Origin: a virus
Length of the DNA: 42,466 nt
Reading direction: 5' to 3' (one strand)
IMG/VR virus record: IMGVR_UViG_3300045988_079499
Shown: piece after piece, positions 8,916 through 31,618 of the stretch
Layout of the letters: every line of letters begins with the position of its first letter
How positions within the stretch are numbered: the first letter of the stretch is position 1
Position numbers and translations under genes: made by a program
The notes under the pieces: model-generated
Seen by the model: the letters and a program-made list of their open reading frames with translations, nothing else
Told to the model about the DNA's origin: nothing
The model's database searches: none

Positions 8916-8924
8916 ATTATACCA
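8916..8924 (-). promoter_or_regulatory. Extended -10 promoter (TGGTATAAT) for the lysis cassette
   Basis: The - strand reads gatggtataatg about 50 nt upstream of the XhlA ATG. It lies downstream of the terminator at 9013..9038. Confidence 0.45.
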
Positions 8925-8942
8925 TCTATATAAGCGAAATAG

Positions 8943-8978
8943 TGTGTCTCTCACGAGCATTCTAAGGCGTTTAAATTT
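8943..8978. repeat. 36-bp direct repeat, copy B
   Basis: Matches 7152..7187 at 32 of 36 positions. Intergenic. Confidence 0.8.
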
Positions 8979-9012
8979 TGTTAGCTGGGTGATTATGCGT
9001 TTAAACGCAAAT

Positions 9013-9038
9013 AAAAAACCATCAAATGAGGGTTTTTT
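9013..9038 (-). terminator. Terminator after the RBP gene
   Basis: aaaaaaccatc-aaat-gagggtttttt: an imperfect 7-bp stem flanked by A and T runs. Confidence 0.5.
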
Positions 9039-10908
9039 ATTGTAGTGTGTAACTAAGAGCACTTAGTGAAAAATACGGTGCTTTCCCAGCTTCTGTAGCT
9101 TGACCTAATGTTTCAGCAGGTATAAATATTATTTTAGGTGTTGTCGTTATAGCAACGCGTCCACCACTACCTTTATTTGTTGCGCTATATGCGAATTCTG
9201 TTTGCGCAGGAGTAATTACGCTAGGTACATACGTATCACCAGTAAATGAAGTTCCTGTACCACTTTGAAATGGATAATAGGACGAGTCTTTCCCAATAGA
9301 TATTCCGCTAGATGGTTTTGGACCAACCTGTCCTTTGAATTCAATCTTACGAGTCCCATCAAGTTGATACACAATACGATATGCTGGAGCATTGTTCTCT
9401 TTCACTTCAAAATTTGAGTTTAATTGTAAGTTAATCCAAGGAGTCTTAGTCAATGCTTTAGCGTCTAATACGCCATTATATTTACCAGATGCGTCACTAA
9501 GCGATAATGTGATTAAACCACCACTTACCCCTGTAGTAGATTCTGATGTTAGTGTACCTGATTCATCATACATTCTCTGTCTAAGGTTTACAGTACCTTG
9601 ATGAATATCTGCTTCTGTAGTAGCAAATTTATATAGTCTTTCACCAGAACTATTTGTTAAATAGTATGAAGCACCAGCCTGTAGAATACCATCTTTAATA
9701 CCTAGTTTACCATCAGTAACTTGATTTGCACCACTAGTAACATTTTCATACTCATTCTGAAACTCAGCACCACTTATTTTACCACCGTCAATAGTACTAC
9801 CTGTCAAATGTGACGCTTGAATAGTTTTACCGATAATGGTTTCAGCAATTACGGAGCTTTCAAAAGGTATCTCAACCCACGTACCAGCTTTAGCTTCATA
9901 TACACCAGTTACTTTGCCAGAAACCACTTTATACCAGATGTCACCTTCATTGAAGTCTGGTGGCTCTGTTTCACCAGTGAATAGTTGTCCATCTGCACCA
10001 TCTTCACCTTGTCTAGCCACGGTGTAGGACTCAGCTTTTGTACCATCAGTATAGTTTAATGTGGTACGTGTCCATAAATATTGACCTCCGCTGATAGATG
10101 GAATAGTACTAGTCCATCCAGTAGTAGGTGGTGTTGTTGAGTTAGTTGACTTATTATATTCAACAATGGTAGTTGATATTCCCACACCGTCAGCTCCATT
10201 TGTTCCGTTTTGTCCGTTGTTACCTTGTCTAGCTACTGAATACCCTTGTTCAGTAGTATTATCAGTATAAGTCCACGTGGTACGTGTCCATAGGTACTGA
10301 CCTGCTGGTGTATTAGGTATTGTAGTAGACCAGTTACTTGTAGGTCTAGTAGTACCACTAGTGCTAACTGCGTATTCAATTACGGTGGTTTTAATACCAA
10401 CTCCATCCTTACCTGCTATTCCATCGTTACCTTTAGCTCCATCTTGACCCATTCTAGCTACTGAGTAGCCAGTTTCAGAAGTTGAGTCTGTATAAGTCCA
10501 TACTGTTTTAGTCCATAAGTACTGACCTGCTGGAACAGTTGGTACTTGCTCTTGCCATCCTGTAGATGGTGGTGTACTTGCATTTGTATGTTTAGCATAT
10601 GTGATGTTAGTTGATTGTAGACCAACTCCATCTTTACCAGCTACTCCATCTTTACCAGAGTCACCCTTCGTGCGCTGCCACTCATACTTAGTGTGGTCTG
10701 TAGAGTCCACCATTTCAAAGTCTGTGTAATAACCAGTAAACGCACGGTTTGTTGGGTCAGTCGTACTAAAATCAACCCCACCGTCTGAGCTATTAGCGTA
10801 TGCAATGTGCACATACGTAGTTTTTCCATCATCACCCTTTTCACCCTTCATACCAACCTCTTCTGGGTCGTAGTTTGGAAGTAGGTATTCTGATTTAATT
10901 ACTGCCAT
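9037..10908 (-). CDS. Tail fibre or receptor-binding protein with collagen-like Gly-X-Y stretches and three tandem repeats of about 75 aa
   Basis: GEKGDDGK, GKDGVAGKDGVG, GAKGNDGIAGKDGVG and GNNGQNGTNGADGVG, each followed by a ...PAGQYLWT(K/R)TTWTYTD.T.E.GYSVAR module. The nucleotide period is about 220 bp. Confidence 0.55.
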   Translation of the reverse strand: MAVIKSEYLLPNYDPEEVGMKGEKGDDGKTTYVHIAYANSSDGGVDFSTTDPTNRAFTGYYTDFEMVDSTDHTKYEWQRTKGDSGKDGVAGKDGVGLQSTNITYAKHTNASTPPSTGWQEQVPTVPAGQYLWTKTVWTYTDSTSETGYSVARMGQDGAKGNDGIAGKDGVGIKTTVIEYAVSTSGTTRPTSNWSTTIPNTPAGQYLWTRTTWTYTDNTTEQGYSVARQGNNGQNGTNGADGVGISTTIVEYNKSTNSTTPPTTGWTSTIPSISGGQYLWTRTTLNYTDGTKAESYTVARQGEDGADGQLFTGETEPPDFNEGDIWYKVVSGKVTGVYEAKAGTWVEIPFESSVIAETIIGKTIQASHLTGSTIDGGKISGAEFQNEYENVTSGANQVTDGKLGIKDGILQAGASYYLTNSSGERLYKFATTEADIHQGTVNLRQRMYDESGTLTSESTTGVSGGLITLSLSDASGKYNGVLDAKALTKTPWINLQLNSNFEVKENNAPAYRIVYQLDGTRKIEFKGQVGPKPSSGISIGKDSSYYPFQSGTGTSFTGDTYVPSVITPAQTEFAYSATNKGSGGRVAITTTPKIIFIPAETLGQATEAGKAPYFSLSALSYTLQ

Positions 10909-10921
10909 ACTTTCATCCTCC

Positions 10922-12346: not shown

Positions 12347-12359
12347 TTCTACTCACTCC

Positions 12360-12398
12360 TTTCTTATTCATTATAACATAAAGAGAGAGACTTTTGCA
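12360..12398 (-). promoter_or_regulatory. Hairpin (11-bp stem gagagagactt/aagtctctctc) followed by an extended -10 TGTTATAAT, upstream of Tal
   Basis: The - strand reads gagagagacttgcaaaagtctctctctttatgttataatg. Confidence 0.45.
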
Positions 12399-12412
12399 AG
12401 TCTCTCTCATGT

Positions 12413-15400
12413 TTATAGATAGTTCTGTGTAATTTCTGCCGTTACCTCTGCCATGTTTGCCCACTCTGAAATAATTGGCTGAACAATGGTTTCACCTGTT
12501 TCTAACTCAAATTTTTCCCACTGATTACCTACAACGTTTAACTGGTTGTTCACTCGTCCGTTGACAAATATTTCTCTAGTTGCTGTGTCAATCTCTACTA
12601 AGTCTCCATCTTGGAAATAGTTCTTCAAGTCCTGATAGTATGGTGTTCCTTCCCAACGTGCTTGCATATCAGTCATTCTCATAATAACATGATATTTATT
12701 TGAGAAGCGCATAATCCAGAAACCAGCTTTTGTGAATTTACTTGTATCTGGCTCAGGTAATGTCCAAGTAAATTTATACTCTTTATCTATTGCAACTGTG
12801 GATAATCCTCCTGAAGTATTAGTTAGATGTTTGATTTGTACCATTCTCCATATTAGTTTATCACCTCTCCTATCCATGTTCATTTCATAAAAGGCTTTAG
12901 TGAATACTTTTCTATCTAATATTTGTTCATGTAACCTCTTATTCTTATACCACGCTTCGAACACAAGTTCATTTGATGTGAGGTTACTATCCCTAATTAT
13001 TGCAGTCATAATAGGGTCACCATTGTCATCAAAGGTTGAGAACTCAATTCTACCACGCTGTGCTTTATTATAATTATCAAATATAAACCTGAAATGTGTA
13101 GAAATTGGTAGTGTTCTATCTGTATTTGATGGCGCTTGAATATCTGCCACAATCGTTGGTCCATGCCATACATTTATTTCACCAACACCTTTAAATATTG
13201 GTGAAATTGCATCAACATCTTGTTTCATATCCCATGTACCTTGTACTAAGTTTGGTGTAGATGGATTACTATTCTTATTTGGATATACTGATTTGAAACC
13301 AGTGTTCACTTTTAGAGCTGGATTTAATGTGTTACCCCAAAAGCCTTCCTCCAGACCTTTTTCAACTCTTGCAGATTGTTTCCCATCAACGTCTTCTGGG
13401 TTACCAAATTGAAGTACCGCTCCATTTTGATTCAATAGTGCAACCAGTCCGTTTTCTCCTTTCATTCTGAATGAAAATCGTGGCTTCGTTCTGTACGTCC
13501 CATTGTTTTCAATCTTAATTAAGTCACCAACAGAGTCTCCACTTGGTACGTATTCAACCGCGTTGATATATGAAGGACTATAACCCCAATAATAATCTTT
13601 TGGATTATTTGATGGTGCTGGTGCGATTCCTTCGTATTTGTAGTATGGAATATTTGGAGTTCGTGTGTCTCCTTTTTCAATCTTGAGCCAATCAATTTGG
13701 CATGCGCCAGGAGTATCTGCTGGGGTTTGATTTATAGTAACTTTGCTAGGGTCAGAAGCTACTTTATCTACTGTAAAAGTTAATGACCACACATCAGTTA
13801 ATCCTTCTACTGGTGACAAATTACCATATCCACCAATACCTTGATTGAATACTCTAAAATTTTTATCTACTGGTTTAGTACCCTTAAGCGTTACAGTGTA
13901 CGTTTCTCCCACAACAAAAGGCTCTGTCATAGTACTGTTATATATTTGGTACGCGCTAGATTTGATTGGGAACGCAACAGACTTATTAGCAATATTTTCA
14001 CCTAAAGCCACCTTACTCAAATAATACGGTGCATCCAGTAGATTTGGCTGGTACGGGGTGGCTGTTGAGCCACGTTCAACTTTCACGTTTTTTATTTTTA
14101 ATGCTGCTTGAACATCTATAGATAAAAATACTCTAAACTTAAAATCACTTAATTTTTCCATGTTGGCACCACTATTGAATTTTACAGAAACCTTTTGCCA
14201 TACATCTGTTGAAGTTACACCATTCATATAAAAAACACCAAAATAATTACGCTTTCCTTCAAACAGTCCGTCTAATGCAACATTACAAGTTTTTAAATCT
14301 CCTACATATCCATTTTCCACAAGTACATCATATGAAATTACATAATCTGTATTATTCAAAAGATTGCCCAATGCTAAATCAAACGATTGAGCTACATCAA
14401 CTCGTGTTTTTTCTATTCTTACTCCATTATCAATTGGGGTTACATCTGCTCCTGCTACACCACCTATTATATTTTCAGCAATATATGGCTTAGTCATAAC
14501 ATTAGGATTCCCACTATAATCATAGTCACCAAAGTCTAAGCTGTTACTATACGCCTTTGCACCTACACTTGGAGCGGTTACTGTCTCACCAATTGGTGGT
14601 AGAAAACTAACCATTGGTTTACTCCATTTAATGAGATTACTTCCTCTGAAACCATACTGCAAGTTAATGGCATTTGTTTGTTCGTTTTCAATCTTAACAA
14701 CTGACCCATACTCAGTGAACTCAGTTGTTACTTTTTTAGGGATATAAACAATGTGTCTCTTAAGTATTGCTCCCTTAAGGGTATCCCACTCTTCTAGTAT
14801 TACTTGTCCAGCATAGTTTTTGTTGTTTTCTTCATCAATTGATACTACTTGTGCATATACACTAAAGTTAACTTCGTCTCCAACCTTCAAATCAGCATTA
14901 TGAATCGTTGTTGCTGGGTTCCAGTTTAGCCAGCGTTCATCAGAGCTTTTATCACGTTCAAAGTTCAAAGGTATTCCATTCGTGAAATCAGCTTGAACTA
15001 CATTAGAGTTATTAAACTTCTCATCTAACTTCTGTACCCAAGGCTTCATATATTTATTGATCGCATTATACTCACTATCAAGCATTACATTTGTTGTGGT
15101 TGAGTAGGTGTTGGAGAAACCGATTGGCTCTATAGCATGTGCTAGCCCATCTGGTACGTCAAAGGTTAACGTCAGTGGAGTATACTTCAAATCTGTTGCG
15201 TCATATTCTTCAGCTCCTGTGAAGATAGCATTAAAGTATCTATCTGGAAACATGTCAAATACTAGCTTCTGAGGTTCATCACTATTGACAAGTGTTTTCA
15301 ACTCATCCATCACTTGTGGTACTGTTTTACCTGTGTTGTCTTTAATAATAAATCCATCAATGCTTAACGTGTAATCTCCTAATCTTGTGTTTCTAAATTT

Positions 15401-15541
15401 TTTTCCATCTGTGTTACCTACTTGGAAAAACTCATTTTCTTTTGACAAAAACGGTATGTTTAATTTTGCAATTTGAAATAAATGTTTTGTCTCTTTTCCG
15501 TCAATCGTAAATGACCTAAGGAAATCATAATTTTGCCCCAT
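12413..15541 (-). CDS. Distal tail protein (evolved Dit, 1042 aa, with a large carbohydrate-binding-like extension)
   Basis: The N-terminal ~130 aa resemble the siphovirus Dit N-domain. It lies directly downstream of TMP. Confidence 0.5.
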   Translation of the reverse strand: MGQNYDFLRSFTIDGKETKHLFQIAKLNIPFLSKENEFFQVGNTDGKKFRNTRLGDYTLSIDGFIIKDNTGKTVPQVMDELKTLVNSDEPQKLVFDMFPDRYFNAIFTGAEEYDATDLKYTPLTLTFDVPDGLAHAIEPIGFSNTYSTTTNVMLDSEYNAINKYMKPWVQKLDEKFNNSNVVQADFTNGIPLNFERDKSSDERWLNWNPATTIHNADLKVGDEVNFSVYAQVVSIDEENNKNYAGQVILEEWDTLKGAILKRHIVYIPKKVTTEFTEYGSVVKIENEQTNAINLQYGFRGSNLIKWSKPMVSFLPPIGETVTAPSVGAKAYSNSLDFGDYDYSGNPNVMTKPYIAENIIGGVAGADVTPIDNGVRIEKTRVDVAQSFDLALGNLLNNTDYVISYDVLVENGYVGDLKTCNVALDGLFEGKRNYFGVFYMNGVTSTDVWQKVSVKFNSGANMEKLSDFKFRVFLSIDVQAALKIKNVKVERGSTATPYQPNLLDAPYYLSKVALGENIANKSVAFPIKSSAYQIYNSTMTEPFVVGETYTVTLKGTKPVDKNFRVFNQGIGGYGNLSPVEGLTDVWSLTFTVDKVASDPSKVTINQTPADTPGACQIDWLKIEKGDTRTPNIPYYKYEGIAPAPSNNPKDYYWGYSPSYINAVEYVPSGDSVGDLIKIENNGTYRTKPRFSFRMKGENGLVALLNQNGAVLQFGNPEDVDGKQSARVEKGLEEGFWGNTLNPALKVNTGFKSVYPNKNSNPSTPNLVQGTWDMKQDVDAISPIFKGVGEINVWHGPTIVADIQAPSNTDRTLPISTHFRFIFDNYNKAQRGRIEFSTFDDNGDPIMTAIIRDSNLTSNELVFEAWYKNKRLHEQILDRKVFTKAFYEMNMDRRGDKLIWRMVQIKHLTNTSGGLSTVAIDKEYKFTWTLPEPDTSKFTKAGFWIMRFSNKYHVIMRMTDMQARWEGTPYYQDLKNYFQDGDLVEIDTATREIFVNGRVNNQLNVVGNQWEKFELETGETIVQPIISEWANMAEVTAEITQNYL

Positions 15542-15571
15542 GTTTATCTCTCCTCATTCTTTTATGTATTC

Positions 15572-15609
15572 ATTATAACACAAAAAAGGGGCGTATACAA
15601 GCCCCTTTT
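15572..15609 (-). terminator. Bidirectional terminator (9-bp stem aaaaggggc/gcccctttt) overlapped by an extended -10 TGTTATAAT, between TMP and Dit
   Basis: aaaaaaggggcgtatacaagccccttttt, then on the - strand tgtgttataatga. Confidence 0.6.
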
Positions 15610-15611
15610 TG

Positions 15612-18600
15612 CTAAACTAATCCTAAATCACGATTAGCATTTAATTGATTTCTTGATTGAATCTTTTGCAGTTTACTATTTAGCTTCTCACCATCTAGCA
15701 CCACATTTGTATCTTTAGCTAAAATAGCCATTAATAACTCATTCTGTTGTTGTAACAATAGAAGCATTTGTGCCATATCAGAGTTAGTACTAGAAGTTGT
15801 TCCAGATACTGGTGTTGACTGGTTGCGGTTAAGCTTCTCATTGGCATAGGCTAATAGTTGCATAGCTCTTGAACGTTTTAAACCAGACCCTGTTAATGGT
15901 ATAACTACTTCTTCCTTGTTACCTTCTCCAACTCTTGCAATGTGTTCTTTCGTGATGATTCCACCGTTTTCATAACCAACTCCACGATACGCATTTGTTA
16001 GTGAACCATATGTTGCGAGTGCATATCTGATGGAAGCAAGAATGTTAGATAATGGGTCATAGATATTACTGTTGAACCCTGGCATTGCATATGCTCTAAA
16101 TGTTGGGTCTATTACCTGCATTAATCCTTTTGATGGTGTACCCTTCATAGCGTTTGGATCCCACAAGTTAATCGCTTTAGGATTACCATTTGACTCTGTA
16201 CGCATTTGATTTAGTAATGCATTTAGATTTCCTGCACTGTATTGACCAGTCATTTTCAATGCTCTAATTGCTACATTACGCCAGCGTTCTACGCCACTCC
16301 CACCAACGCTATCGCCTGAAATTTGAGTGTTTTGTGGGTCTTTCACACCGTTTAAATGCACGTGATCATAATGGTCTCCAGCTGGCCATGGTCTCCAATC
16401 GTCATGAATACCTGTACCTGATTGTCCTGAACGGTCACGAACCTTCCCATTAGTGATGACATAACCAATCTTGGAAGCGAATTTTTCAAAAGCATAGTTT
16501 GCGGCTTCTGTGTATTTAGGTGAGCCTCCTGTGACACCTGGTAATGCAATATCAATGGCATTACGTTTACCATGTGAATACTGGTCACCTGGTCTGTATC
16601 CACTAGTTACCATGAAGCCTGGAAATTTCTTCATTACAGATTTAGCAACATCTGCTAAATATTTATAAACACCATTTGTTCCTATAGATGTATCCAAGTT
16701 ACCTGATGAGAACAAGCTAGTAATCTTTTCAGTGAGTGCGCTTGTGGCTTTAGATAGTATGCCTTTACCTACTTCTAATGGATATTTTGTCAATCCACCT
16801 AACATATCTAAACCACCAAGTACTTTCCTAGCTAACGCCCCAGGGTCTGAAATGAAATCCCACACATCACCTACTACATTTTTAAGTGTGTTTCCTACAT
16901 TACCAGCAACATTTTTCACACTATCCCACATGTTACCAAAGAAGTTAGTACCTTTCTTATAACGGTAACGAGGCGCTTTTGAACCTTGAAGTTGTGCGGT
17001 CTCTTCTGCTGTCAAGACATGTGTTCCTTTTGGTGCATTTAGAACAACGTTGCGTCCTTTAGGGATGAAGGCTCTACCATCTGGTGTGATGACTGTTTCT
17101 GCTCCACGTCCATCATTAACCATCATTGGTCCATTAATTGGGTGACCACCTTTTGGAGTACCTGTGGCGTATTGCGGTACATCCCATTCTTTTAGAGGTT
17201 CTGCACCCAATTTTTCAAGTACCCATGAAGCACCCTTGATAATCCCATTCACTGGTTTACCTATCGCTTTAAGAGCTCCATTAAATACAGATTTAAAGGC
17301 GTTTGCTACTTTACTTCCTCCTGATTTAAACTTCTCAGCTAATTCTCCTGGTAAGTTTTTGAACCACGTCTTCATCTTGCTTAGCCATGTACTAAACTTA
17401 ATAGATATATCAGTAATCCAACCAGTGAACGCCTTTGTTGTTCTAATGTTCCAGTCTTCAATACTTTTAATCATATCACCTAAGAACGTGTTTTTCAAAT
17501 TGGTTTTGATTGACTCAGATATGCGATCATACATGCCTTTGATCTCATCCCATGCTCCAGACCAGTCACCTTTGAATATTTTACTCCAAATTTTGATAGT
17601 ACTAGAAATGATAATCATGGTTGTTTCTATTGTTGCCATGATGAGCCCAAGTTTTATTTTCAGTGTTTCCCATAATATAGTGAATGCATTAATAAGAATG
17701 TCACTGTTGCGTTTTCCTGATCCACCAAAGTTATCTAGTGCGCCACTAATGTCTGCTAAATAACCTGTGATACGACTGAGCCATCCAGCAAACTGTTCAA
17801 ACAGAGGTAATAAATCAGGTGCAATTACCTCCTCCCAAATCTTAACTAAGTCTTTACATGCTTGAATCATTTTGTCCAAGCCGTCTTCAAGAAGTCTTAC
17901 AATAGTTTCTTTAACAGAATCAAGAGCAGTCTTAATATTTTCTTTAGCTGTTTCTAATGCGTCTATGTCTCCTTGACTCATTCCTAACGAACGTAGTAAT
18001 GAATATCCTTGCATTTGAGTAGCTTCGTCACCAGTAAACAGTTGCCAGAAACCTTTGATGTATTGAGTTAATGTTTCACCTTTCTCCTTAACCTGTGTGA
18101 TGAAATCATCTAACGCCCAGATACTTTCCCAGCTGAATCCCATCATATTTAAAATATGTTGATCAGTTACTGTATCCGTTCCATTCCACATTTTACCAAT
18201 AATATCTTTTAAGTTTGAGATAAAGTTTTCAACATAAAAGAAAAAGAAATCAAGGGTCTTCATGGCATTAGGCAATGTTTTATTGAAGAAATTTTCAATT
18301 GGTTGTGTCATCCCACCAGTAAACTCTTGTGCCCAGATAGCAATTGAATTAACCGTTCCTTTCACTCCGTTTGTGAAAGCATCCCATGCTGTGGTATTAG
18401 TCATGGTGTTATTCAAATCTTCTGCGCTTCCTTTAGTTTCTCCAAAGGAAGTACTAGCTCCTGCCATTGCTTTGATTACTTTAAGTGAGTTGTCTTCACC
18501 TAGTGCAGACCACACTGTACTCGCTCTATTTAGAGAATCATATCCCCCCTCCATATTCGCAAAGTCGTTCATCATGCTCTTGACTACTTCACCCTGAGTC

Positions 18601-20096: not shown

Positions 20097-20129
20097 GCAT
20101 TTCACTCCTTTTGCTTGCTTTCTTAATCT

Positions 20130-20175
20130 ATTATAACATAAAAAGAGACACTCTAGCTGTGTGCTAAAGTGTCTC
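20130..20175 (-). terminator. Hairpin terminator (gagacact/agtgtctc) followed by an extended -10 TGTTATAAT, upstream of TMP
   Basis: The - strand reads gagacactttagcacacagctagagtgtctctttttatgttataatag. Confidence 0.55.
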
Positions 20176-20723: not shown

Positions 20724-20761
20724 TTTAGTTCCTCCAATGTTTTATTTATCTTTACTAGTTC

Positions 20762-20821
20762 ATTATATCATATAATCCCTCAAGTGTGTAAATAAAAAAC
20801 CTAGTCAATTAAGACTAGGTT
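20762..20821 (-). terminator. Terminator (9-bp stem aacctagtc/gactaggtt plus a T-run) followed by an extended -10 TGATATAAT, upstream of gpG
   Basis: The - strand reads aacctagtcttaattgactaggttttttattt...tatgatataatg. Confidence 0.6.
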
Positions 20822-20827
20822 TAGTGG

Positions 20828-21394: not shown

Positions 21395-21433
21395 ACTAAA
21401 AACTCCTTTTATTTTTATTTTCTTACTAGGTTA

Positions 21434-21442
21434 ATTATAGCA
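21434..21442 (-). promoter_or_regulatory. Extended -10 TGCTATAAT upstream of the major tail gene
   Basis: The - strand reads atatgctataatt about 45 nt upstream of the ATG at 21394. Confidence 0.4.
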
Positions 21443-21465
21443 TATTATCAACGCTTTGTGTTTGA

Positions 21466-22820: not shown

Positions 22821-22884
22821 TCCTTTATCATATAATAAAAGAGAGACGAGGCATGAGCCCCACCCCTCTTCGTGAATGTTTATA

Positions 22885-24123: not shown

Positions 24124-24156
24124 TCAATCTCACTCCTTCACTAGCTTTCTGTTTTA

Positions 24157-24202
24157 ATTATAGCATACATATTAGAAGTTGTGGGCTTTAAATTACAAGC
24201 CC
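24157..24202 (-). promoter_or_regulatory. Hairpin (gggctt/aagccc) followed by an extended -10 TGCTATAAT, upstream of the capsid gene
   Basis: The - strand reads gggcttgtaatttaaagccc...atgtatgctataatt. Confidence 0.4.
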
Positions 24203-24744
24203 AACAGCTCCAATTCCACTTCTAAGCGTTGTTTCTCTAATTCATTAACAGCTTCTTCTAATGAGCGTGTCGCAACTCTTACGTCTGTGTCATCGTAGGC
24301 TGGAATGGATACTAGAGAAATTTCTAATAATGAACCAATCTTGTTAATTGAACGTTTCATAATGTCTTTACCTTTTGTCCACTTGTCTTTAGCTACTGTG
24401 AAACCAAATGAGCATTGATTTAGATCACCACGTTTTACAAGTTCCATCGCGTCACGTCCATTACTTGTGTCAGGAAGTACGCAACGAAAACGTAAACCAA
24501 TATCATCTACACTCAGTTCCAGTGTTCCGCTTGATGTGCGTCCTAATAACTTACTAGAGTCGTGATCCATGAAGCAACGTACATCTGTCAAGTCTACCCC
24601 TTCTAATGCTTCTGGTGAAATTGTCTCCACAAATCCACCTAAATTACGTGATTCTTTATTAAATTTTAGTGCATATCCTTCCACTACATTATCCTCTGTC
24701 TTCTCCAGTGTCTGTAGGGCTCTGATTTCCAAGTTCTTCTTCAT
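24193..24744 (-). CDS. Prohead protease (HK97 family)
   Basis: 183 aa. Positional evidence. Confidence 0.65.
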   Translation of the reverse strand: MKKNLEIRALQTLEKTEDNVVEGYALKFNKESRNLGGFVETISPEALEGVDLTDVRCFMDHDSSKLLGRTSSGTLELSVDDIGLRFRCVLPDTSNGRDAMELVKRGDLNQCSFGFTVAKDKWTKGKDIMKRSINKIGSLLEISLVSIPAYDDTDVRVATRSLEEAVNELEKQRLEVELELLGL

Positions 24745-25894
24745 TAATATTCACATCCTGTTCTGTTTTATTTTCAGTTGTTTCTGGTGTTTGACCAAGC
24801 AAGGCTTCTCCTCCTTCAATCTCAGTAAAACCAAGATACTCACGTGCGTCATTTACCGTTAAGGCTTGTGCAAACTCAGACTTCACTCTTCCTTCTGCAA
24901 TTCTACGCAGTCTATCTTCTGTAGTATCTTGACGTAGTTTAGATAAATCTAACTCTAACTCTACTCCTAATTTTAGATTTAACTCATCACAGATAGATGA
25001 TTCGTACATCGCTATAGTACTTGCAATATAGATATCATTCTGACTGGTGTCAGATGAGTTGACCAATTCTTGACCAAACCTGCTTACTGGAATTCCTAAT
25101 ACTTTAGCAATCTGCTGGGTACTAAATTTATTGGCTTGAATTAATTTTAGTACTTCTGTATTAATTTTATTATCAGTGAACTCTTGCGAGTCATCTATCA
25201 CGATAACTCCACCGTTTCCATTTACTGCTTCAAAGTCGTCTCTAATTTGTTTCTTAGCACTGTTGTTGACTGTACCATTTAATAATTTAAGAATACCTCC
25301 AGAGAAGACACCTTTTGAAAAGAAATTATTTAGTACTTTTAACCCATTAGTTTGTAGTGATATTTCATCATTTAATGATAGTAGTGGTGAGCGTCCTAGC
25401 CAGCCATCTGTGGTACTTAATTTGAAGTGCAGAATATCCCGTGGGTCACACTTGTACATAATATTCCCATATGGCATGTTAACCTCATATCTATATACTC
25501 CTGTGACAAGGTCTCTAATGACATTAACCTGTTGTGTTTCTACAAACTCTAGCTCTTTCACACTACCATCATTGTTTCTATGAATGAGAACATATGCGTT
25601 TCCTGTTAAAATAAGGTTTGAAACCACTGCATACATCATTGTATAGTGTGATTGATTTGCCTTTGGCTCTTTATTTAACAAGTGTAATAAGCTTTGATCC
25701 ACTGAGGTGGTAGCTGCTGGTTTAAATTGACTCTGAGCAATATCCCCAGCAATAATGTTAACCCCAGTATAAATATCTGAGTTTGTCAACGCTTTGAGAC
25801 CTGTGAAATTGGTAGTGTAAGCTGTTCCAGTATTGATATAATCAATAAATTGTTGCTCTGTCACTGGGTTTCCGTTGTTTATGAATAATCCCAT
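24689..25894 (-). CDS. Portal protein (HK97 family)
   Basis: 401 aa. Downstream of terL. The C-terminus is acidic. Confidence 0.75.
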   Translation of the reverse strand: MGLFINNGNPVTEQQFIDYINTGTAYTTNFTGLKALTNSDIYTGVNIIAGDIAQSQFKPAATTSVDQSLLHLLNKEPKANQSHYTMMYAVVSNLILTGNAYVLIHRNNDGSVKELEFVETQQVNVIRDLVTGVYRYEVNMPYGNIMYKCDPRDILHFKLSTTDGWLGRSPLLSLNDEISLQTNGLKVLNNFFSKGVFSGGILKLLNGTVNNSAKKQIRDDFEAVNGNGGVIVIDDSQEFTDNKINTEVLKLIQANKFSTQQIAKVLGIPVSRFGQELVNSSDTSQNDIYIASTIAMYESSICDELNLKLGVELELDLSKLRQDTTEDRLRRIAEGRVKSEFAQALTVNDAREYLGFTEIEGGEALLGQTPETTENKTEQDVNINEEELGNQSPTDTGEDRG

Positions 25895-25897
25895 GTA

Positions 25898-26074
25898 TTA
25901 TGACCTCCCTTCTCCTGAATTGGTGGCTTCATGATATAAAACAATCGTTGGTATCATGAATAAAATACCACAGGTGAATAAACCTATGATATTTGATACT
26001 AAAAATGCTGATAAAGCGATAAATACTGTGCTAATTATATACAAAACAGCTACAATAACCGCAACAAATTTCAT
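25898..26074 (-). CDS. Small hydrophobic membrane protein (58 aa), not in the ORF track
   Basis: RBS aaaaggagcgtgaaaacATG. MKFVAVIVAVLYIISTVFIALSAFLVSNIIGLFTCGILFMIPTIVLYHEATNSGEGRS. Its stop is 3 nt before the portal ATG. Confidence 0.5.
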   Translation of the reverse strand: MKFVAVIVAVLYIISTVFIALSAFLVSNIIGLFTCGILFMIPTIVLYHEATNSGEGRS

Positions 26075-26108
26075 GTTTTCACGCTCCTTTTGCGATATTT
26101 CTAACTCT

Positions 26109-26156
26109 ATTTTAACACAAAATAGACGAAAAGGGTATGCTGTTTAAACATACCCT
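26109..26156 (-). terminator. Hairpin terminator after terL (8-bp stem agggtatg/cataccct) followed by a TGTTAAAAT element
   Basis: The - strand reads agggtatgtttaaacagcataccctttt. Confidence 0.45.
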
Positions 26157-26167
26157 CAGTTGTTGTA

Positions 26168-27940
26168 TTAGTATCCAAAACCAAACTCGCCACTATCTAG
26201 TAAGTCTTGCAATGTTGGTGCGTCATAATCGTGATATTGAGCGTCACTCATGGCATTTATTATGGCATCAAGTGAGTCAATTTTATTCCTATTTATTTGC
26301 TTATCAATCGCAACGCTATCATTGTACTCTTTAATCATTGCATTGTATGCTGCACGATTCAATAAAGGGTTATTGGTGTGCATTACTTCACCTCTACGAA
26401 TTAACTCACGCAGGGCTCTTGTTGGGGATGATAAATAATTTATTTTCTGTGGTACTTCAATTAGTTTTTTAGGGTAGGTTTTACTTAGATTAATTAAAGC
26501 CTTATCCATCATAAATGGATCATAATAAATACCAACCAATTGTAAGTCATTATAATCTATGAAATCACGTATCCAATCACACATTTCTTCTGTATCAATT
26601 AAGCCGTCTTCACGTTGGGAAATATGAATGAGGTTCATTGCCTCATACTGTCTATAGGGTATTTTATCAATTGATTGTTTATGGTCTATACCTCCAACTG
26701 AAGACACAAAACCATGTGTATCTAGTAATAACTTTTGTTCTTCTTCTATTGGGATAATCCATGAAACGGCTGTCATATCTGATGTTCTTGCTAAGTCAAT
26801 GCCAATATATACTTTTCTACCCTTAATATTATAATGATTGGGTGCTTTGACGGAATCCCACTCTTCTTTGGTTACAAAACTATCTTTAGATGATTGTACC
26901 CAAAAATTCATTTCTTTCGTTAACCAACCTGATAAATCCATTTTACCCTTGTATTCATCAAGTGAGTTACGCTTATGCTCCATCATTGAGTCATATGCTT
27001 CTGGTATTTCAAATAGTGGGTTTGATTTTATCCAATTTTCTTCATCATCTACTTCTGATAGACTATCCATTTCCCAACAAAGAGCCAAATAAGCGTCACC
27101 TTTAACCTCTTCATTAAGTAATTTTTCAACGAATGGATATTCTACAGAGTGCATAGGCCCAGTTAGGTTTTTAGTAGTTGTTGAAATTATTAGTATTAAT
27201 CCCTCTAATTGTTGAGATTGAGAGGATTCTAATACTTGAATAATTGCGTCATCTTTAGCTTCACCATATTCATCTAAAATACCGCATAATACATCTAGTC
27301 CATCAAGTGTATCAGCGTCACTTGATAGCGGTTTTACTGTTGATTCGTCACTAGCTTCAATATCATATCTACGAACAGTTGTTCTTTTTTTAACTTCTTT
27401 TGACACACTACGTAACGCAGTTAGCTGTGATTTAAGCATTCTGAAAACGATTCCTGCTTGCTCTTTTGTGTTTGCTGCTGCAACAACTTGACGACTGGCT
27501 GCTGGATTCTTACCAAACAAAAACTCATATAGTGCTATCCCTGAAACCAGTAACGACTTACCATTTTTACGTGCTAGTGAGATGTATGCTTTTCTAAAGC
27601 GTCTAGTATTATCTTTCTTTTTACGCCATCCATAGAGTAATCCAACAATAAATTTCTGAAAGTGGGCTAGTGTTGTGGTTTTGCGAGACTTAGGATCTGG
27701 AAGCATTTCAAGAAATCTAACTGGCGGTATTGCTTCCTCTGGCCTATAAATATATGGATATTTAGGGTCTTTTGAGCGTTCAATATCCTTCTGATGTCTT
27801 TCAATGGCTTTCTGTATTTTTTTACCAACTTTGATTTTAACTTTAATAGGTTTATAATAATCATCTTCTACTATATATTTACGTCCTTCAATCCATCCTG
27901 TTTCAATCAGATTGATATAATCTTGTACAAAGTCTTCCAT
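26168..27940 (-). CDS. terL: Terminase large subunit (Terminase_1 family)
   Basis: 590 aa. It has the RKNGKS Walker-A-like region and lies immediately upstream of the portal. Confidence 0.8.
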   Translation of the reverse strand: MEDFVQDYINLIETGWIEGRKYIVEDDYYKPIKVKIKVGKKIQKAIERHQKDIERSKDPKYPYIYRPEEAIPPVRFLEMLPDPKSRKTTTLAHFQKFIVGLLYGWRKKKDNTRRFRKAYISLARKNGKSLLVSGIALYEFLFGKNPAASRQVVAAANTKEQAGIVFRMLKSQLTALRSVSKEVKKRTTVRRYDIEASDESTVKPLSSDADTLDGLDVLCGILDEYGEAKDDAIIQVLESSQSQQLEGLILIISTTTKNLTGPMHSVEYPFVEKLLNEEVKGDAYLALCWEMDSLSEVDDEENWIKSNPLFEIPEAYDSMMEHKRNSLDEYKGKMDLSGWLTKEMNFWVQSSKDSFVTKEEWDSVKAPNHYNIKGRKVYIGIDLARTSDMTAVSWIIPIEEEQKLLLDTHGFVSSVGGIDHKQSIDKIPYRQYEAMNLIHISQREDGLIDTEEMCDWIRDFIDYNDLQLVGIYYDPFMMDKALINLSKTYPKKLIEVPQKINYLSSPTRALRELIRRGEVMHTNNPLLNRAAYNAMIKEYNDSVAIDKQINRNKIDSLDAIINAMSDAQYHDYDAPTLQDLLDSGEFGFGY

Positions 27941-27995
27941 TTATGTATCCTCCTTTTATACTATTCACTTACATTATAGCACAAAAAAGAACTTC

Positions 27996-28256
27996 CTAGT
28001 CTGGAAGTTCTTTTTTAAATACTTCTAAGTCTTTATATAGATAATCAAAACTTTCTTCAATTTCTGTTAGCATGTAATGTGTTTTTGGTAATCCTTGTGT
28101 AAGTCTCAATGTAATCACTTTGTTAGTATCAACATATTTTTTTAGATTGTCACATTCTGATTTGTATTCTAATAATTCTGATAATGTATAAAAGTGACTT
28201 GTTACTTCTTCTAGTTTTGTTTCGATATTTTCAAGCATTTCGTTTAATGTTGTCAT
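27996..28256 (-). CDS. Hypothetical protein (86 aa) preceded by an early-type leader
   Basis: The - strand reads tgatatacttaattcataagttaagaggaggaaacaacaATG. Confidence 0.45.
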   Translation of the reverse strand: MTTLNEMLENIETKLEEVTSHFYTLSELLEYKSECDNLKKYVDTNKVITLRLTQGLPKTHYMLTEIEESFDYLYKDLEVFKKELPD

Positions 28257-28318
28257 TGTTGTTTCCTCCTCTTAACTTATGAATTAAGTATATCATGGAG
28301 TCTATTATATTTCAACAA
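28257..28318 (-). promoter_or_regulatory. Early-type promoter-leader cassette on the late strand (TTGTTG-17-TGATATACT + TAATTCATAAGTTAAGAGGAGGA)
   Basis: The extended -10 is at 28287..28295. The leader is a match to the + strand early cassettes. Confidence 0.5.
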
Positions 28319-28346
28319 TAAAGATTAAATATTAGAATATTCTAAT

Positions 28347-28383
28347 AAAAAAAAAAGACTCCCTAGTTAGCTAGACTAGGGAG
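28347..28383 (-). terminator. Strong rho-independent terminator (9-bp stem ctccctagt/actagggag plus a T10 run)
   Basis: The - strand reads ctccctagtctagctaactagggagtcttttttttttatt. Confidence 0.8.
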
Positions 28384-28758
28384 GTGTTAGTATCTGCTAG
28401 TATCCACGCCCTACGTTAAGTGTATACTAGCTTTATGTGTGCACGTCATCAAGTAGGGTCATACTATCACACTCTGCGCCAGACACTGTGGCGAGCACTC
28501 ATTTTTAGAGAGGTGGTGTATCCTCTATCCCCGCTGACGGTTAAGGTTTCCAACTCCGTCACAGTATAACCTTAGTCATACGTTTTAGCATACTCTCGCT
28601 TGCGGTGTCACGAGAGGTGTATTAGATTCCACCTATTCATTGATTTACTTAATATGCTTTTGTCAATTGTAGTTGAAAAATTACTGTCACCCTTATTATA
28701 AAATCATACCCGTGATTTTACTTAATTAGTATACCACAACTTTTTAGTTTTGTGTAGG
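28384..28758 (-). ncRNA. Candidate structured non-coding RNA or structured 3' UTR between terS and terL (GC-rich, ORF-free, hairpin-rich)
   Basis: ~375 nt with no ORF of 60 aa or more on either strand. GC content is clearly above the surrounding ~34%. It contains several hairpins and is bounded on its 3' side by a terminator. Strand inferred from the terminator. Confidence 0.3.
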
Positions 28759-29223
28759 TTATCCCTCAAACATTTTCGCAAATGGGTCAAGTACTTCTTT
28801 CTCTTTCTCAGCTGGAAGAATAATCTTCATTCTTGAGTTGATTGTTAGTCCTAAGTCGTTGGTTGCCGTTTTAAGCTCTTTTGAATAGGAGTTCATGGCA
28901 TTAACCCAGGGGTTGGCTTTACCTGTCTCAGGATCAATAGCGCCCATCTGAGCCACCTTCTCTACTGCCTCTGCGTATAAATAATTATAGTTGCAATATC
29001 TAATGACTGTATTTACATCTAACTCACTAATAGGCAGGTCTCCCACATATGCTCCAATGCGATCCCATTCATTGAATGCTTGTGGCAATAGACCTGGTGG
29101 ATAAAAACTGAAGTCCAGCTTTTCATAATTGTAAAGTAGTTCTTCCTCCTTCTCACGCGCTTCTCGTTGTTGAGTGGTCAAGTTACCACTTTGAGCGTTT
29201 AATAGTTTTCGTGGTCTTGCCAT
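28759..29223 (-). CDS. terS: Terminase small subunit (P27 / Terminase_4 family)
   Basis: Starts MARPRKLLNAQSGNLTTQQREAREKEEELLY with RBS aaaggaggagtgataatATG. It lies downstream of the terminase-associated HNH gene. Confidence 0.7.
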   Translation of the reverse strand: MARPRKLLNAQSGNLTTQQREAREKEEELLYNYEKLDFSFYPPGLLPQAFNEWDRIGAYVGDLPISELDVNTVIRYCNYNYLYAEAVEKVAQMGAIDPETGKANPWVNAMNSYSKELKTATNDLGLTINSRMKIILPAEKEKEVLDPFAKMFEG

Positions 29224-29227
29224 ATTA

Positions 29228-29410
29228 TCACTCCTCCTTTGGTACTTCTGTAATTTCAAAATGACGATTACGTCCACCTAGTTTTGTTTTAACGTCCTTA
29301 AAATAGCCACGCTTCTTTCCATAAAATTCATCTGCTTGAAATTGCGATTTGAACTTACGTGTTTGTCCAGTCGCCAAATCTTTTACGTACACAGGTTTTG
29401 GTGCAGGCAT
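29228..29410 (-). CDS. Small basic protein (60 aa)
   Basis: ORF with RBS aagggagg. It is the first gene after the terminator and promoter. Confidence 0.4.
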   Translation of the reverse strand: MPAPKPVYVKDLATGQTRKFKSQFQADEFYGKKRGYFKDVKTKLGGRNRHFEITEVPKEE

Positions 29411-29467
29411 TTATTCTACCTCCCTTACATTATTGTTAAGTTAAAAGCTAACTCCCTTATATCTATA

Positions 29468-29511
29468 ATTATATCATATAAAAAGAACCCTGTGTAGAGA
29501 AACCAGGGTTC
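29468..29511 (-). terminator. Terminator (8-bp stem gaaccctg/cagggttc plus a T-run) overlapped by an extended -10 TGATATAAT, upstream of the packaging genes
   Basis: The - strand reads gaaccctggtttctctacacagggttctttttatatgatataatt. Confidence 0.6.
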
Positions 29512-29599
29512 AATGGTGTCTAATGGGGGATAAATCATATTAGGGAAATAACATACTATATATAGTATGAGTCCTTGATTTACAACACAAGAAACCAGT

Positions 29600-29768
29600 T
29601 TTAAATCACGTTTACGAGGGGAAAAGGGCGTTTTCGAAAGTTCGTTTTTAGAATTTCGTGCGAAGAAGAGGGGGCAGCGATTAATTCGTTATAAAAAGGC
29701 GGGCGGGTAAAAACATTTTGGGTCTCCCTAAAAATAATTTTGGCTGCGCGCTTGTTGATTTAGCGCTG
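29600..29768. other. Candidate cos region: GC-rich G-runs plus repeated TTCGT/CGTTT motifs
   Basis: gagggggcagcg at 29668..29679 and aggcgggcgggt at 29697..29708. Five TTCGT(T)-type repeats lie within about 100 bp upstream. The position between HNH and terS is typical of HNH-dependent cos phages. Confidence 0.35.
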
Positions 29769-30152
29769 TTACCTACCTCTATTTTTCCAACTGTAGCTAT
29801 GTTCTTCCTTGTTGTGACACTCGTAACAGATTGACTCTAAGTTATTTAAATCAAGTCTATGTTTCCATCCATTTGGACTTCTTAATTCTATATTATGGTG
29901 AACCATATCAGCGTTGGTGTACTTGCCTTGTGCTAAGCATACCTCGCAGAGTGGTTGCTCCATTAGCTTAGCTTTACGTGCATTCCTCCATTGAGTACTA
30001 TGATAGAACTGACTGTACTTCTTGTTGTCGTCATTATATCGTACATGTTTATTGTATTGGCTATTGTTATATCCACTATGCTCCGTACAATAGCGCTCTG
30101 GTAGCGTGACATAGTTGCGGCATGAAGCCACTGCACACTTGCGTTGTGGCAT
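29769..30152 (-). CDS. HNH endonuclease (terminase-associated, zinc-ribbon type)
   Basis: CAVASCRNYVTLPERYCTEH, then ...CEVCLAQGKYTNADMVHHNIEL...NLESICYECHNKEEH. Adjacent to terS. Confidence 0.8.
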   Translation of the reverse strand: MPQRKCAVASCRNYVTLPERYCTEHSGYNNSQYNKHVRYNDDNKKYSQFYHSTQWRNARKAKLMEQPLCEVCLAQGKYTNADMVHHNIELRSPNGWKHRLDLNNLESICYECHNKEEHSYSWKNRGR

Positions 30153-30195
30153 TGTGTTACTCCTTCCTTCTATTGTATATAAGAAAAGACTACTA

Positions 30196-30411
30196 TTATT
30201 TAGTAGTCTTCTTTGTGTTCATGCTCTTGCTAACTTTATCCACATCTACTTTAAGTGTTAGGTCTGATGCTTTGGTGTCTTGTAACGGTTTGACTGACTC
30301 AGGTTCTGGTAATGGATTAGGTACCTTTAATCGTGTATGCTTATAACAGTATTGTGCTGGTAGCTTAACTGTTTCGTTGCATCCTTCTTGATTGCAATAC
30401 ATATATGGCAT
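30196..30411 (-). CDS. Small Cys-rich protein (71 aa), a paralog of the HNH N-terminal zinc-ribbon
   Basis: CNQEGCNETVKLPAQYCYKH has the same C-x4-C-x9-C-x2-H pattern as the N-terminus of the HNH gene at 29769..30152. Confidence 0.5.
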   Translation of the reverse strand: MPYMYCNQEGCNETVKLPAQYCYKHTRLKVPNPLPEPESVKPLQDTKASDLTLKVDVDKVSKSMNTKKTTK

Positions 30412-30608
30412 TATACTCCCACCTCCTTTAGTTTATGATTGATATCATATAGCTCATTCATTACTCTTGCATATGCTTCAGCATGTTGCATATATTGTGC
30501 GTCATACATTGGAAGACCAGCTTCTAACTCATCACGTCTGGCAACTAAGCGAGCGATGTCTGTTAGTGTTGGTTCTGTTGGCTGAGTAATTGGTTCGTCC
30601 ATAATCAT
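30411..30608 (-). CDS. Hypothetical protein (65 aa)
   Basis: ORF. Confidence 0.35.
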   Translation of the reverse strand: MIMDEPITQPTEPTLTDIARLVARRDELEAGLPMYDAQYMQHAEAYARVMNELYDINHKLKEVGV

Positions 30609-30613
30609 TCCTC

Positions 30614-30796
30614 CTAGAAGTTATAATCTTGTTTCTTACGTACTATCATATTATTATCCTGTACTATCTTAATAGCGTCTTCAAGTGTTGGCTCTTTAGT
30701 ATTAGTTGATACGTTTTGTAGTTTACTTTCTAACTCACGATATTCTTTTACTAGGTCTGTTTTGTTTAGTGCTAGTAGTTGTTTGTCAGTTTTCAT
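30614..30796 (-). CDS. Hypothetical protein (60 aa)
   Basis: ORF. Confidence 0.35.
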   Translation of the reverse strand: MKTDKQLLALNKTDLVKEYRELESKLQNVSTNTKEPTLEDAIKIVQDNNMIVRKKQDYNF

Positions 30797-30944
30797 GCGT
30801 TAATTCCTCCAATACAATCTTTCCATTCTCACATACTTGATACTATTATTTAACGTTTTAGATACCATATAAGTATGCCTAGTGCAATCACGCAAATTCC
30901 AATCAACAGTGACATCATCAACAATGATACTATAATATCTATTG

Positions 30945-31136
30945 TCATCTGCCCTTACCTCCTAATAACCAACTCCATACGATAACCAGTTGTGCAATTG
31001 CAAAGCCCCACTCACCTTGCTGAAATAATTGATATGGTAACTTCATACCTAAATAGATAGCAATGTAACCGAAACCAATGATAATCAAAAGACTTAATAT
31101 AATTGATAAACTCGTGGTTAATACGTCTTTCATCAT
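30945..31136 (-). CDS. Small membrane protein (63 aa), the first gene of the - strand module
   Basis: Two predicted transmembrane segments. RBS aaagaggaggagATG. An extended -10 TGATATAAT lies at 31157..31165. Confidence 0.45.
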   Translation of the reverse strand: MMKDVLTTSLSIILSLLIIIGFGYIAIYLGMKLPYQLFQQGEWGFAIAQLVIVWSWLLGGKGR

Positions 31137-31618
31137 ATCTCCTCCTCTTTGTTTCTATTATATCATATATAAGGGATACTGTGTGAGTTAAGTAAACCAG
31201 TTATTAGTGACAAAAACTCAGCCTAAAATGGTCATTTTGTCACTAAATTGCTTGTTTTTGTCAGCGTTTTGTCACTAATTTTGACACCTAAAAACGCTGT
31301 AACCCTTGATAAATCTACATTCTTATTTTTATAATGACAAAATGACAAAATATTATATATATTAATTAAAAAATAAAGTTACTACATTATAATGTAGTAT
31401 TACAGTATATATAAAGAGTATGGTACTTTTTTTGTCATTTTGTCATTAAACTGGTCTCTTACTTAGAGTATCAAGGAATAGAGCGATTTTAAAAAAGTCA
31501 TTTTAGTGTCATATAGTGACAAAAACGCAAAATTAGTGACATTTTTTAATCTTTTCTATTGACGTTGGTTTCTATACATGCTATACTTAGTTCATAAGAT
31601 AAAGAGGAGGAAACAATT
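31137..31618. promoter_or_regulatory. Divergent control region and putative origin: iterons TTAGTGACAAAA / TGACAAAA in both orientations around an AT-rich core with a 20-bp palindrome. It holds the - strand promoter (TGATATAAT) and the + strand early promoter (TTGACG-17-TATACT).
   Basis: TTAGTGACAAAA at 31204 (+), 31235 (rc), 31267 (rc), 31515 (+) and 31533 (+). TGACAAAATGACAAAA at 31335..31350, with its reverse complement at 31431..31446. Palindrome tactacattataatgtagta at 31380..31399. Confidence 0.6.

Follow-up and report, generated by a model that had tools for sequence, protein, structure and literature searches.

Promoters of the extended -10 type function without a -35 element, and Thermus phage P23-45 uses such promoters for its middle and late genes (PMC3950348). 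Its protein gp39 has a dual action, favouring extended -10 promoters and causing antitermination at intrinsic terminators (PMC3351154). In Bacillus phage SPP1, the closest Gram-positive siphophage to have been well studied, the late gene clusters are delimited by intergenic stem-loop terminators, promoter PL1 has a canonical -10 but an atypical -35, and late transcription requires an early factor that is itself unidentified (PMC6316719). Composite terminator/promoter cassettes known as PeSLs occur in T4-like phages, where they mediate gene shuffling (PMC4122927). Here we analyse a phage genome of 42,466 nt, IMG/VR record IMGVR_UViG_3300045988_079499 (the whole stretch is called the window below), in which hairpins and extended -10 elements recur side by side throughout the late module (8916-31165, minus strand). 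Judged from the sequence, these elements probably act as fused cassettes, each an intrinsic terminator joined to a sigma-A extended -10 promoter, that segment late transcription. The layout is a conserved, uncharacterised instance of known element types, and its occurrence is highly non-random.

The window is a complete Enterococcus faecium siphophage genome (~42.5 kb, ~35% G+C) of the IME-EFm5/IME-EFm1 group. For most of its extent it is 88-91% identical to the E. faecium phages IME-EFm5, BUCT630, EF36P3 and IME-EFm1; the Efquatrovirus phages of E. faecalis are more remote relatives. Virion and lysis genes occupy the minus strand from 31136 down to 7252, and replication and early genes occupy the plus strand from 31619 to the window end and onward to 7174, the two strands converging at a bidirectional terminator. 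Pfam matches to terS, terL, portal, prohead protease, capsid, tail tube, TAC, Dit and a Tal-like protein appear in the expected order, and the annotation of IME-EFm5 is consistent with these late gene identities and their order. A search of the window for tRNAs found none, and no part of it matched an Rfam family at the gathering threshold.

The window contains 17 copies of the extended -10 motif TGNTATAAT, where 4.5 +/- 2.0 are expected. Ten copies lie on the minus strand of the late module (8916, 12370, 15572, 20130, 20762, 21434, 24157, 27973, 29468 and 31157), and all ten fall in its 2,138 nt of non-coding DNA, where dinucleotide shuffles of the late gaps gave a mean of 0.125 sites and at most three in 5,000 trials. 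Late coding sequence (22,074 nt) holds no exact site on the same strand, and the late gaps hold none in antisense orientation. A first-pass annotation, made from the letters alone, had proposed about ten such units of the form TGnTATAAT, and these are real. Its positions hold as well, including the variant TGTTAAAAT at 26109, except that the site given as 12360 is at 12370; it had overlooked the site at 27973 (TGCTATAAT, before terL) and a TGGTATACT variant at 28728-28736. All of these, the ten exact sites and the TGTTAAAAT and TGGTATACT variants, have the TG one base upstream of a near-TATAAT -10 that characterizes the extended -10 class. The TG is directly preceded by T-R in 10 of the 11 elements on the earlier list; the resulting TRTG, or "-16 region" motif, is typical of Gram-positive promoters. 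Promoter-like elements are found in every late-strand gap of at least 55 nt except two, namely the gap behind the capsid gene, with just a terminator, and the gap between the first two small open reading frames (ORFs). The distance from the end of the -10 to the start codon is 20-57 nt. Two antisense copies of TGATATAAT, on the plus strand at 25834-25842 (within the portal gene) and 27913-27921 (at the terL start), are also kept in relatives; they are probably held by the protein sequence and not by a role as promoters, since both are sited inside conserved coding sequence.

Conservation was evaluated in 47 related genomes and contigs, comprising five full genomes and 42 IMG/VR contigs found via the tail tube protein, and counts at junctions refer to distinct sequences per orthologous junction. 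Within this family the late strand carries TGNTATAAT about five times as often as its complement does (312 versus 62). The motif is kept before the tail tube gene in 41 of 41 sequences, before TAC in 40 of 42, before terL in 32 of 34, before Dit in 35 of 39 and at the junction preceding terS in 29 of 31. When one position of the motif is relaxed, it is also kept before capsid (32/32), orf58 (19/19) and holin (20/20). Control junctions that have no gap lack it almost entirely (portal, 0/30; adaptor, 1/37; terS, 1/33). The family logo, built from 242 unique sites, consists of T-4, T-2 (84%), R-1 (95%), TGnTATAAT and an A 7 nt past the -10. The interruption of the late module by a promoter-like element at nearly every gap of at least 55 nt, in most cases close behind a terminator-like hairpin, agrees with the first-pass annotation and is conserved in the family.

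The accompanying hairpins vary freely in sequence across relatives, and their position is fixed. A hairpin is present at the terL junction in 23 of 23 family sequences and at the TMP-Dit junction (TMP, the tape measure gene) in 34 of 34 distinct sequences. Among the latter there are 25 different hairpins, and in every case a short T-run, an A or G, and TGnTATAAT come next. In the hairpin before TMP, five of 13 pairs have changed on both sides, and pairing is retained in 97% of cells, compared with 32-60% when the partners are slid against each other. G-U pairs appear in this hairpin only when it is read on the late strand, a sign that the structure belongs to the sense RNA. Structure maintained by compensatory change, as expected of terminators, is found at both the TMP and the Dit junctions. 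In two relatives a gene for an I-HmuI-like HNH homing endonuclease lies between the TMP-Dit cassette and Dit (L007, ~15202-15802; L010, ~16062-16663), and in two others (L002 and L011) such a gene lies upstream of terL.

Folding of the 50 nt upstream of each of eleven elements revealed significant hairpins at eight (29468, 27973, 26109, 24157, 20762, 20130, 15572 and 12370), with energies of -14 to -22 kcal/mol and z-scores of -2.4 to -5.6. There is no hairpin upstream of 31157 and only a weak one at 21434; at 8916 the hairpins are farther off, ~75-115 nt upstream. A clear T-run follows the stem at 29468, 27973, 20762, 20130, 15572 and 12370 (TTT only at the last); 26109 has a poor T-run and 24157 has none. 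Six or seven of the eight hairpins are accordingly terminator-like. Stem-loops followed by a U-tract, the form of an intrinsic terminator, are present at 29468, 27973, 20762, 20130, 15572, 28383, 22871 and 7249. A simple terminator scan taken alone did not differ significantly from shuffled sequence (9 versus 6.9; 10 versus 5.9), so the case for the hairpins rests on their position, strand, fold z-scores and covariation. The GenBank record of the relative 9184 independently annotates terminators at the same junctions.

Comparison of six full genomes supports the existence of two promoter classes, as the first-pass annotation had suggested. TG-extended sites with a good TTGnnn -35 number 50 on the early strand versus 5 on the late strand. 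A perfect TATAAT is found in only one of these 55 sites; the others have TATACT, TATTAT, TATAGT or TACAAT. The late strand, on the other hand, is dominated by perfect-TATAAT sites without a TTG -35, and in the window no late site has a -35 of the TTG type. The earlier description of the late elements as lacking a -35 is only partly right: about half of the family sites carry CACA(A) in its place (exact CACA in 129 of 271 unique sites). In the family logo this box appears as conserved C-18 A-17 C-16 A-15 A-14 relative to the T of TG, which is the position of the -35 hexamer, ~-33 to -29 counted from the conserved A, the probable transcription start. Its information content is 0.4-1.1 bits versus ~0.05 in the flanks (242 unique sites at eight or more non-homologous junctions). 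The box has ACA in common with TTGACA, but we do not regard it as an ordinary degenerate -35 because it has a conserved C where TTGACA has G, and no conserved TT.

Sites with the CACA box in the six genomes are mostly on the late strand (39/45) and mostly have a perfect TATAAT (40/45). The window sites that carry the box are 31157, 29468, 28728, 24157, 21434 and 20762; it is missing from the sites directly abutted by a terminator (terL, orf58, TMP, Dit and Tal). In a second correction to the first-pass annotation, the design is not confined to the late module, given that CACAA promoters also occur at 900-926 (plus strand) and 39883-39909 (minus strand) and that the early strand has terminator/promoter fusions of its own. 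When the pattern CACAA-N11-TATGNTATAAT was searched in IMG/VR, the matches listed were mostly single ones in unrelated contigs, and among them only this phage family had multiple matches per contig; these matches thus give no evidence for wider use of the box. A further candidate, the heptamer CTGGTTT upstream of two promoters, was rejected as an activator site, as at 29468 it is the 5' arm of the hairpin. Features of the window are collected in Table 1.

Table 1. Positions of predicted promoters, hairpins and terminators in the window.
Position	Strand	Feature	Details
31559..31587	+	Early-type promoter, for contrast	TTGACG, 17-nt spacer, TGCTATACT
5449-5477, 38625-38653, 41417-41445		Further copies of early-type promoter	
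31157..31183	-	CACAA-type promoter before orf63 (first minus-strand gene)	CACACA box, 17-nt spacer, TATATGATATAAT; no hairpin upstream
29468..29511	-	Hairpin, TTTTTATA and TGATATAAT before orf60/terS	Hairpin 29485-29511, -14.7 kcal/mol
28728..28754	-	CACAA-type promoter with TGGTATACT, directly past terS stop	Faces ~370 nt of structured non-coding sequence
28349..28383	-	Intrinsic terminator closing the terS-terL non-coding unit	9-bp stem, T10
28287..28315	-	Early-type promoter before orf86	TTGAAA, 17-nt spacer, TGATATACT, leader TTAATTCATAAGTTAAGAGGAGGA
27973..28017	-	Hairpin, T6 G and TGCTATAAT before terL	-17.6 kcal/mol
26109..26157	-	Hairpin and TGTTAAAAT variant before orf58 (membrane)/portal/protease	-14.2 kcal/mol
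24157..24214	-	Hairpin without T-run, CACAA on its 3' side, then TGCTATAAT; before capsid	
22838..22871	-	Strong terminator directly after capsid gene, no extended -10 behind it	-20.9 kcal/mol
21434..21460	-	CACAA-type promoter before tail tube gene	
20762..20822	-	Terminator, CACA box and TGATATAAT; after tail tube, before TAC gpG/GT	Terminator 20797-20822, T6
20130..20175	-	Terminator, T5 A and TGTTATAAT before TMP	13-bp stem
15572..15610	-	Terminator, T6 G and TGTTATAAT before Dit	10-bp stem
12370..12408	-	Hairpin, TTTA and TGTTATAAT before Tal	11-bp stem
8996..9040	-	Two hairpins after orf623, upstream of lysis promoter	-14.1 kcal/mol together, z -5.5
8916..8924	-	TGGTATAAT before holin-holin-endolysin	Without TRTG; CACAC 2-3 nt out of register
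7223..7249	both	Bidirectional terminator	Convergence point of late and early strands
900..926	+ (early strand)	CACAA-type promoter before ORF 972-1664	
39820..39909	-	CACAA-type promoter and candidate ~55-nt small RNA, inside early region	Promoter 39883-39909 (TGCTATAAT 39883-39891); RNA 39876 to ~39820

Set against the described systems, the late elements resemble the textbook extended -10/TRTG class in having TG with a consensus -10, T-R at nearly all sites and no TTGACA-like -35. They differ from it by the CACAA box at the -35 position of about half of the family sites. P23-45 with gp39 (and T4 with AsiA) is alike in that phage middle and late promoters lack a -35, the other class has both -10 and -35, and intrinsic terminators lie in the late region. 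However, no gp39 or AsiA homologue was found by Pfam or PHROGs among ~45 ORFs of the window, its early TTGACA promoters are host-type and TG-bearing, and host and lineage are different. Like SPP1, the window phage is a virulent Gram-positive siphophage (SPP1, ~44 kb) with late clusters delimited by terminators, and the -35 of PL1 is atypical too. SPP1 differs in that no late consensus was found at its other clusters, whereas the window phage repeats one consensus at nearly every gap.

The resemblance to PeSLs lies in a short stem-loop fused to a host-type promoter in intergenic DNA and in the association with inserted genes. PeSLs, however, are near-identical repeats with early promoters in hyperplastic regions, whereas the late hairpins of the window are unrelated to each other and lie between conserved structural genes; only the early-type promoter-leader is repeated here (three copies), and the late cassettes fall outside the definition of a PeSL. 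With T4 middle promoters the likeness is one of geometry alone, as a box near -30 replaces the -35 and the -10 is good and often TG-extended; the MotA box is TGCTT, not CACAA, and no MotA or AsiA homologues were found. Late promoters of the T4 type (TATAAATA) and sigma-like promoters of the SPO1 type could be discarded because the -10 is a perfect sigma-A consensus. In RinA/ArpU/LtrC/Alt systems, an activator gene lies near terS and a single activator-dependent late promoter lies upstream of terS. The window has a different layout, in which ~12 promoter-like sites take the place of a single one; the Pfam and PHROGs searches gave no match to these late-operon activator families, orf60 immediately before terS included.

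In the mechanism that we consider probable, each cassette would have two parts. The GC-rich stem-loop and its U-tract would halt the transcript of the upstream unit, probably only partly, and the stem would also leave a protective 3' hairpin on the upstream RNA. The adjoining extended -10, T-R-T-G-n-TATAAT, would allow host sigma-A polymerase to initiate without the normal -35 contacts. Transcripts would start ~7 nt past the -10 at the conserved A, giving leaders of 13-50 nt with strong GGAGG ribosome sites. The late strand would in this way be split into ~12 units. Capsid (promoter 24157, terminator 22871-22838) and tail tube (21434, 20822-20797) would be separately bracketed, and TAC, TMP, Dit, Tal-orf623 and the lysis cassette would each receive a fresh start. 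Initiation independent of a -35 would be needed because the -35 position is taken by the terminator stem or by the CACAA box; conversely, since an extended -10 has no need of sigma region 4, a stem or a foreign box can occupy that position. The same independence would explain why sites with a perfect -10 lack a -35, whereas those with a consensus -35 have an imperfect -10. A promoter and terminator of their own for capsid and tail tube would fit the high copy number of these proteins in the virion. We infer initiation and termination at the elements, and the strength of both, from their form. Two features could make the system more than a sum of known parts, namely the CACAA box and the way in which terminator and promoter abut exactly.

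Several observations count against this mechanism. In the close relative L006 the TMP-Dit gap is only 27 nt and holds no cassette, so individual cassettes are dispensable. Nor do all of the hairpins look like efficient terminators, given the three T at 12370 and the lack of a T-run at 24157. A perfect extended -10 should act on naked DNA from the first minute of infection, and the lateness of these genes then needs explaining. Pfam and PHROGs searches of ~45 ORFs recovered no sigma factor, anti-sigma factor, RinA, ArpU, LtrC, Alt, MotA, AsiA, gp39 or other transcription regulator, although phage transcription factors evolve fast and a missing homologue is thus weak negative evidence. Literature searches turned up neither a transcriptome nor mapped promoters for this phage group or its close relatives. 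With regard to timing, the sites may be constitutive, with no dedicated switch and with template copy number and host shut-off accounting for late dominance, an explanation that we regard as possible but short of probable. It is somewhat unlikely that a phage factor disables -35 recognition by the logic of gp39 or AsiA, sparing the late promoters and silencing the TTGACA class, and an activator acting at the CACAA box seems to us unlikely.

The last idea belongs to a broader alternative, also unlikely in our estimate, in which CACAA is the site of a phage factor that replaces the contacts of sigma region 4. Promoters with the box would then be factor-dependent middle or late promoters, and, at a similarly low probability, the hairpin-abutted sites without it would be weak or rely on polymerase that comes from upstream. 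Activators that bind near -30 have precedents in phi29 p4 and in sigma appropriation by T4 MotA/AsiA. The fixed distance and information content of the box, its frequency in the family, its persistence while its flanks drift, its departure from a degenerate sigma-A -35 (C for G, no conserved TT) and its association with perfect TATAAT and the late strand all argue for such a factor, as does SPP1, with its early factor and the atypical -35 of PL1 (PMC6316719). Yet the homology searches offer no candidate among MotA, AsiA, RinA, ArpU, Alt or sigma-like proteins. The AlphaFold model of the first early protein (78 aa; pLDDT 92) is a plain three-helix bundle for which Foldseek gave no PDB match below E = 2, and this uninformative fold permits no AsiA-like assignment. 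Furthermore, five late junctions keep the promoter without the box, the box has been lost from the tail tube promoter in the E. faecalis clade, and the ACA matches the 3' half of TTGACA, which would permit a weak contact with sigma region 4.

We give little credence to two further alternatives. One holds that the late genes are expressed as one or two long RNAs from 31157 and 29468 with antitermination, the hairpins being processing, stability or attenuator elements; that the internal TGnTATAAT elements contribute little is, by the same token, improbable. Long late operons are the common layout in siphophages, and the hairpins at 24157 and 12370, lacking a good T-run, would suit it. Antitermination by P23-45 gp39 likewise implies that hairpins need not be full stops (PMC3351154). 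Long RNAs would nevertheless leave unexplained why a perfect sigma-A element of 9-11 nt is kept at the same junctions in 30-41 of 30-41 divergent sequences while its surroundings and the hairpins change, and why it is absent from gap-less junctions and from coding sequence. According to the other, the cassettes are mainly portable modules or recombination points for gene swapping, with tuning of expression secondary. Such a role has the PeSL precedent (PMC4122927) and is suggested by the identical promoter-leader cassette present three times (5449 and 38625, plus strand; 28315, minus strand), the orf86 insertion bracketed by two cassettes, the HNH genes at the TMP-Dit cassette and before terL in relatives, and the spacer CACAAGTAAGGGAAT common to the gpG promoter and the plus-strand promoter at 900. 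The late cassettes, however, are not repeats of one another, every hairpin being different, and they occupy fixed junctions of conserved core genes, not hyperplastic regions.

At individual junctions, the promoter at 31157 is conserved in relatives L001, L002 and L005. The arms of the hairpin at 29485-29511 are GAACCCTG and CAGGGTTC, with CACA inside the 3' arm. The orf86 gene, inserted between terS and terL, is missing from most relatives. Around the holin-holin-endolysin cassette, a direct repeat, TTTAAA(C/G)nnCTTAnAATGCTCGTGA, is present on the minus strand at ~8948-8975 and ~7160-7186; it could mark an exchange site for lysis cassettes. The terS-terL non-coding unit (28350-28754, minus strand) has a CACAA-type promoter, ~370 nt with ORFs of at most 49 aa, and a strong T10 terminator, and is conserved in the E. 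faecium-phage relatives. RNAalifold analysis of its 3' 180 nt in 10 sequences gave 36 pairs, 12 with compensatory changes, making it a candidate structured RNA; no Rfam family was assigned, and a permissive search of 28200-28800 gave sub-threshold matches only.

Other variations on these elements were observed in the early region. The early promoter-leader cassette (5449-5500 and 38625-38676, plus strand; 28264-28315, minus strand) consists of TTGAC/A, a 17-nt spacer and TGnTATACT followed by TTAATTCATAAGTTAAGAGGAGGA, and its minus-strand copy drives orf86. The spacers of its two plus-strand copies are inverted repeats (CACCTCA..TGAGGTG and CACCCC..GGGGTG) bridging the -35 and the TG, and they differ from each other in compensatory fashion. 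In the early-strand terminator/promoter fusions at 35358-35405 and 1675-1725 (plus strand), the -35 TTGACT lies in the 3' arm of the hairpin, and the T-run serves as the spacer to a TG-extended -10 downstream (TGGTATTAT and TGTTAACAT). A palindromic pair of CACAA-type promoters, AGTATAGCACAAA and TTTGTGCTATACT (33463-33500), faces both directions just upstream of the primase gene (33534). The gpG and plus-strand 900 promoters share their spacer, as noted above, and the latter precedes ORF 972-1664 (plus strand; 230 aa, phrog_6479). The C-terminus of this protein, ...DDQKEVVTEEELPF, has an acidic tip like that of single-stranded-DNA-binding proteins; the protein had no Pfam match, and a PDB sequence search found no match and was uninformative. 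The sequences TGACAAAA/TTTTGTCA occur 14 times in the window versus 5.0 +/- 2.3 expected genome-wide. Nine of the 14 copies are at 31208-31524, on both strands, in the 480-nt divergent region between the first minus-strand and plus-strand genes, and this cluster is likely an operator or iteron array at the point of early/late divergence.

The CACAA-type promoter inside the early region faces a candidate small RNA with the predicted transcript UAGGGAUAUUCCUCCUCCCUCCUCUCGUUAAGACUAGUCAAUUGACUAGUCUUUUUG, which includes an unpaired CU-rich anti-Shine-Dalgarno stretch. Its terminator has a 10-bp stem (-18.6 kcal/mol, z -4.9). Each of the six full genomes retains the promoter, the CU stretch and a terminator, the stems of phiSHEF2 and Bp29 being different ones. 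A permissive Rfam search of 39780-39920 gave only sub-threshold matches, to the Betaproteobacteria toxic sRNA family (19 bits versus 50), a family that likewise has CCUCCUCCC motifs. The window holds eight copies of the complementary 9-mer GAGGAGGAA versus 0.27 expected. Six copies are ribosome sites of plus-strand early units, one is in the orf86 leader and one at the small RNA locus; none is at a late gene. Across the six genomes there are 3-11 copies on the early strand versus 0-1 on the late strand. A distinctly speculative proposal, to which we assign a low probability, is an undescribed early-to-late switch of Enterococcus siphophages with two arms. In one, an unrecognised phage factor would activate the perfect-TATAAT class, either by binding the CACAA box (~-31) or by disabling -35 recognition. 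In the other, the exposed UUCCUCCUC of the small RNA would pair with the GAGGAGGAA ribosome sites and shut down early translation, which would fall as late transcription rises.

Phages of the group to which the window belongs (IME-EFm1, IME-EFm5, 9184 and the Efquatrovirus relatives) are under development against vancomycin-resistant enterococci. The late consensus T-R-T-G-n-TATAAT, with or without CACAA and fused to terminators, provides testable transcription units and compact parts for engineering. The tight fusion of terminator and promoter is also a natural test case for the restart of a just-terminated polymerase at an adjacent promoter. If it is true that the CACAA box, or independence from the -35, serves a phage factor, these phages would have a new way to redirect the RNA polymerase of Gram-positive bacteria.

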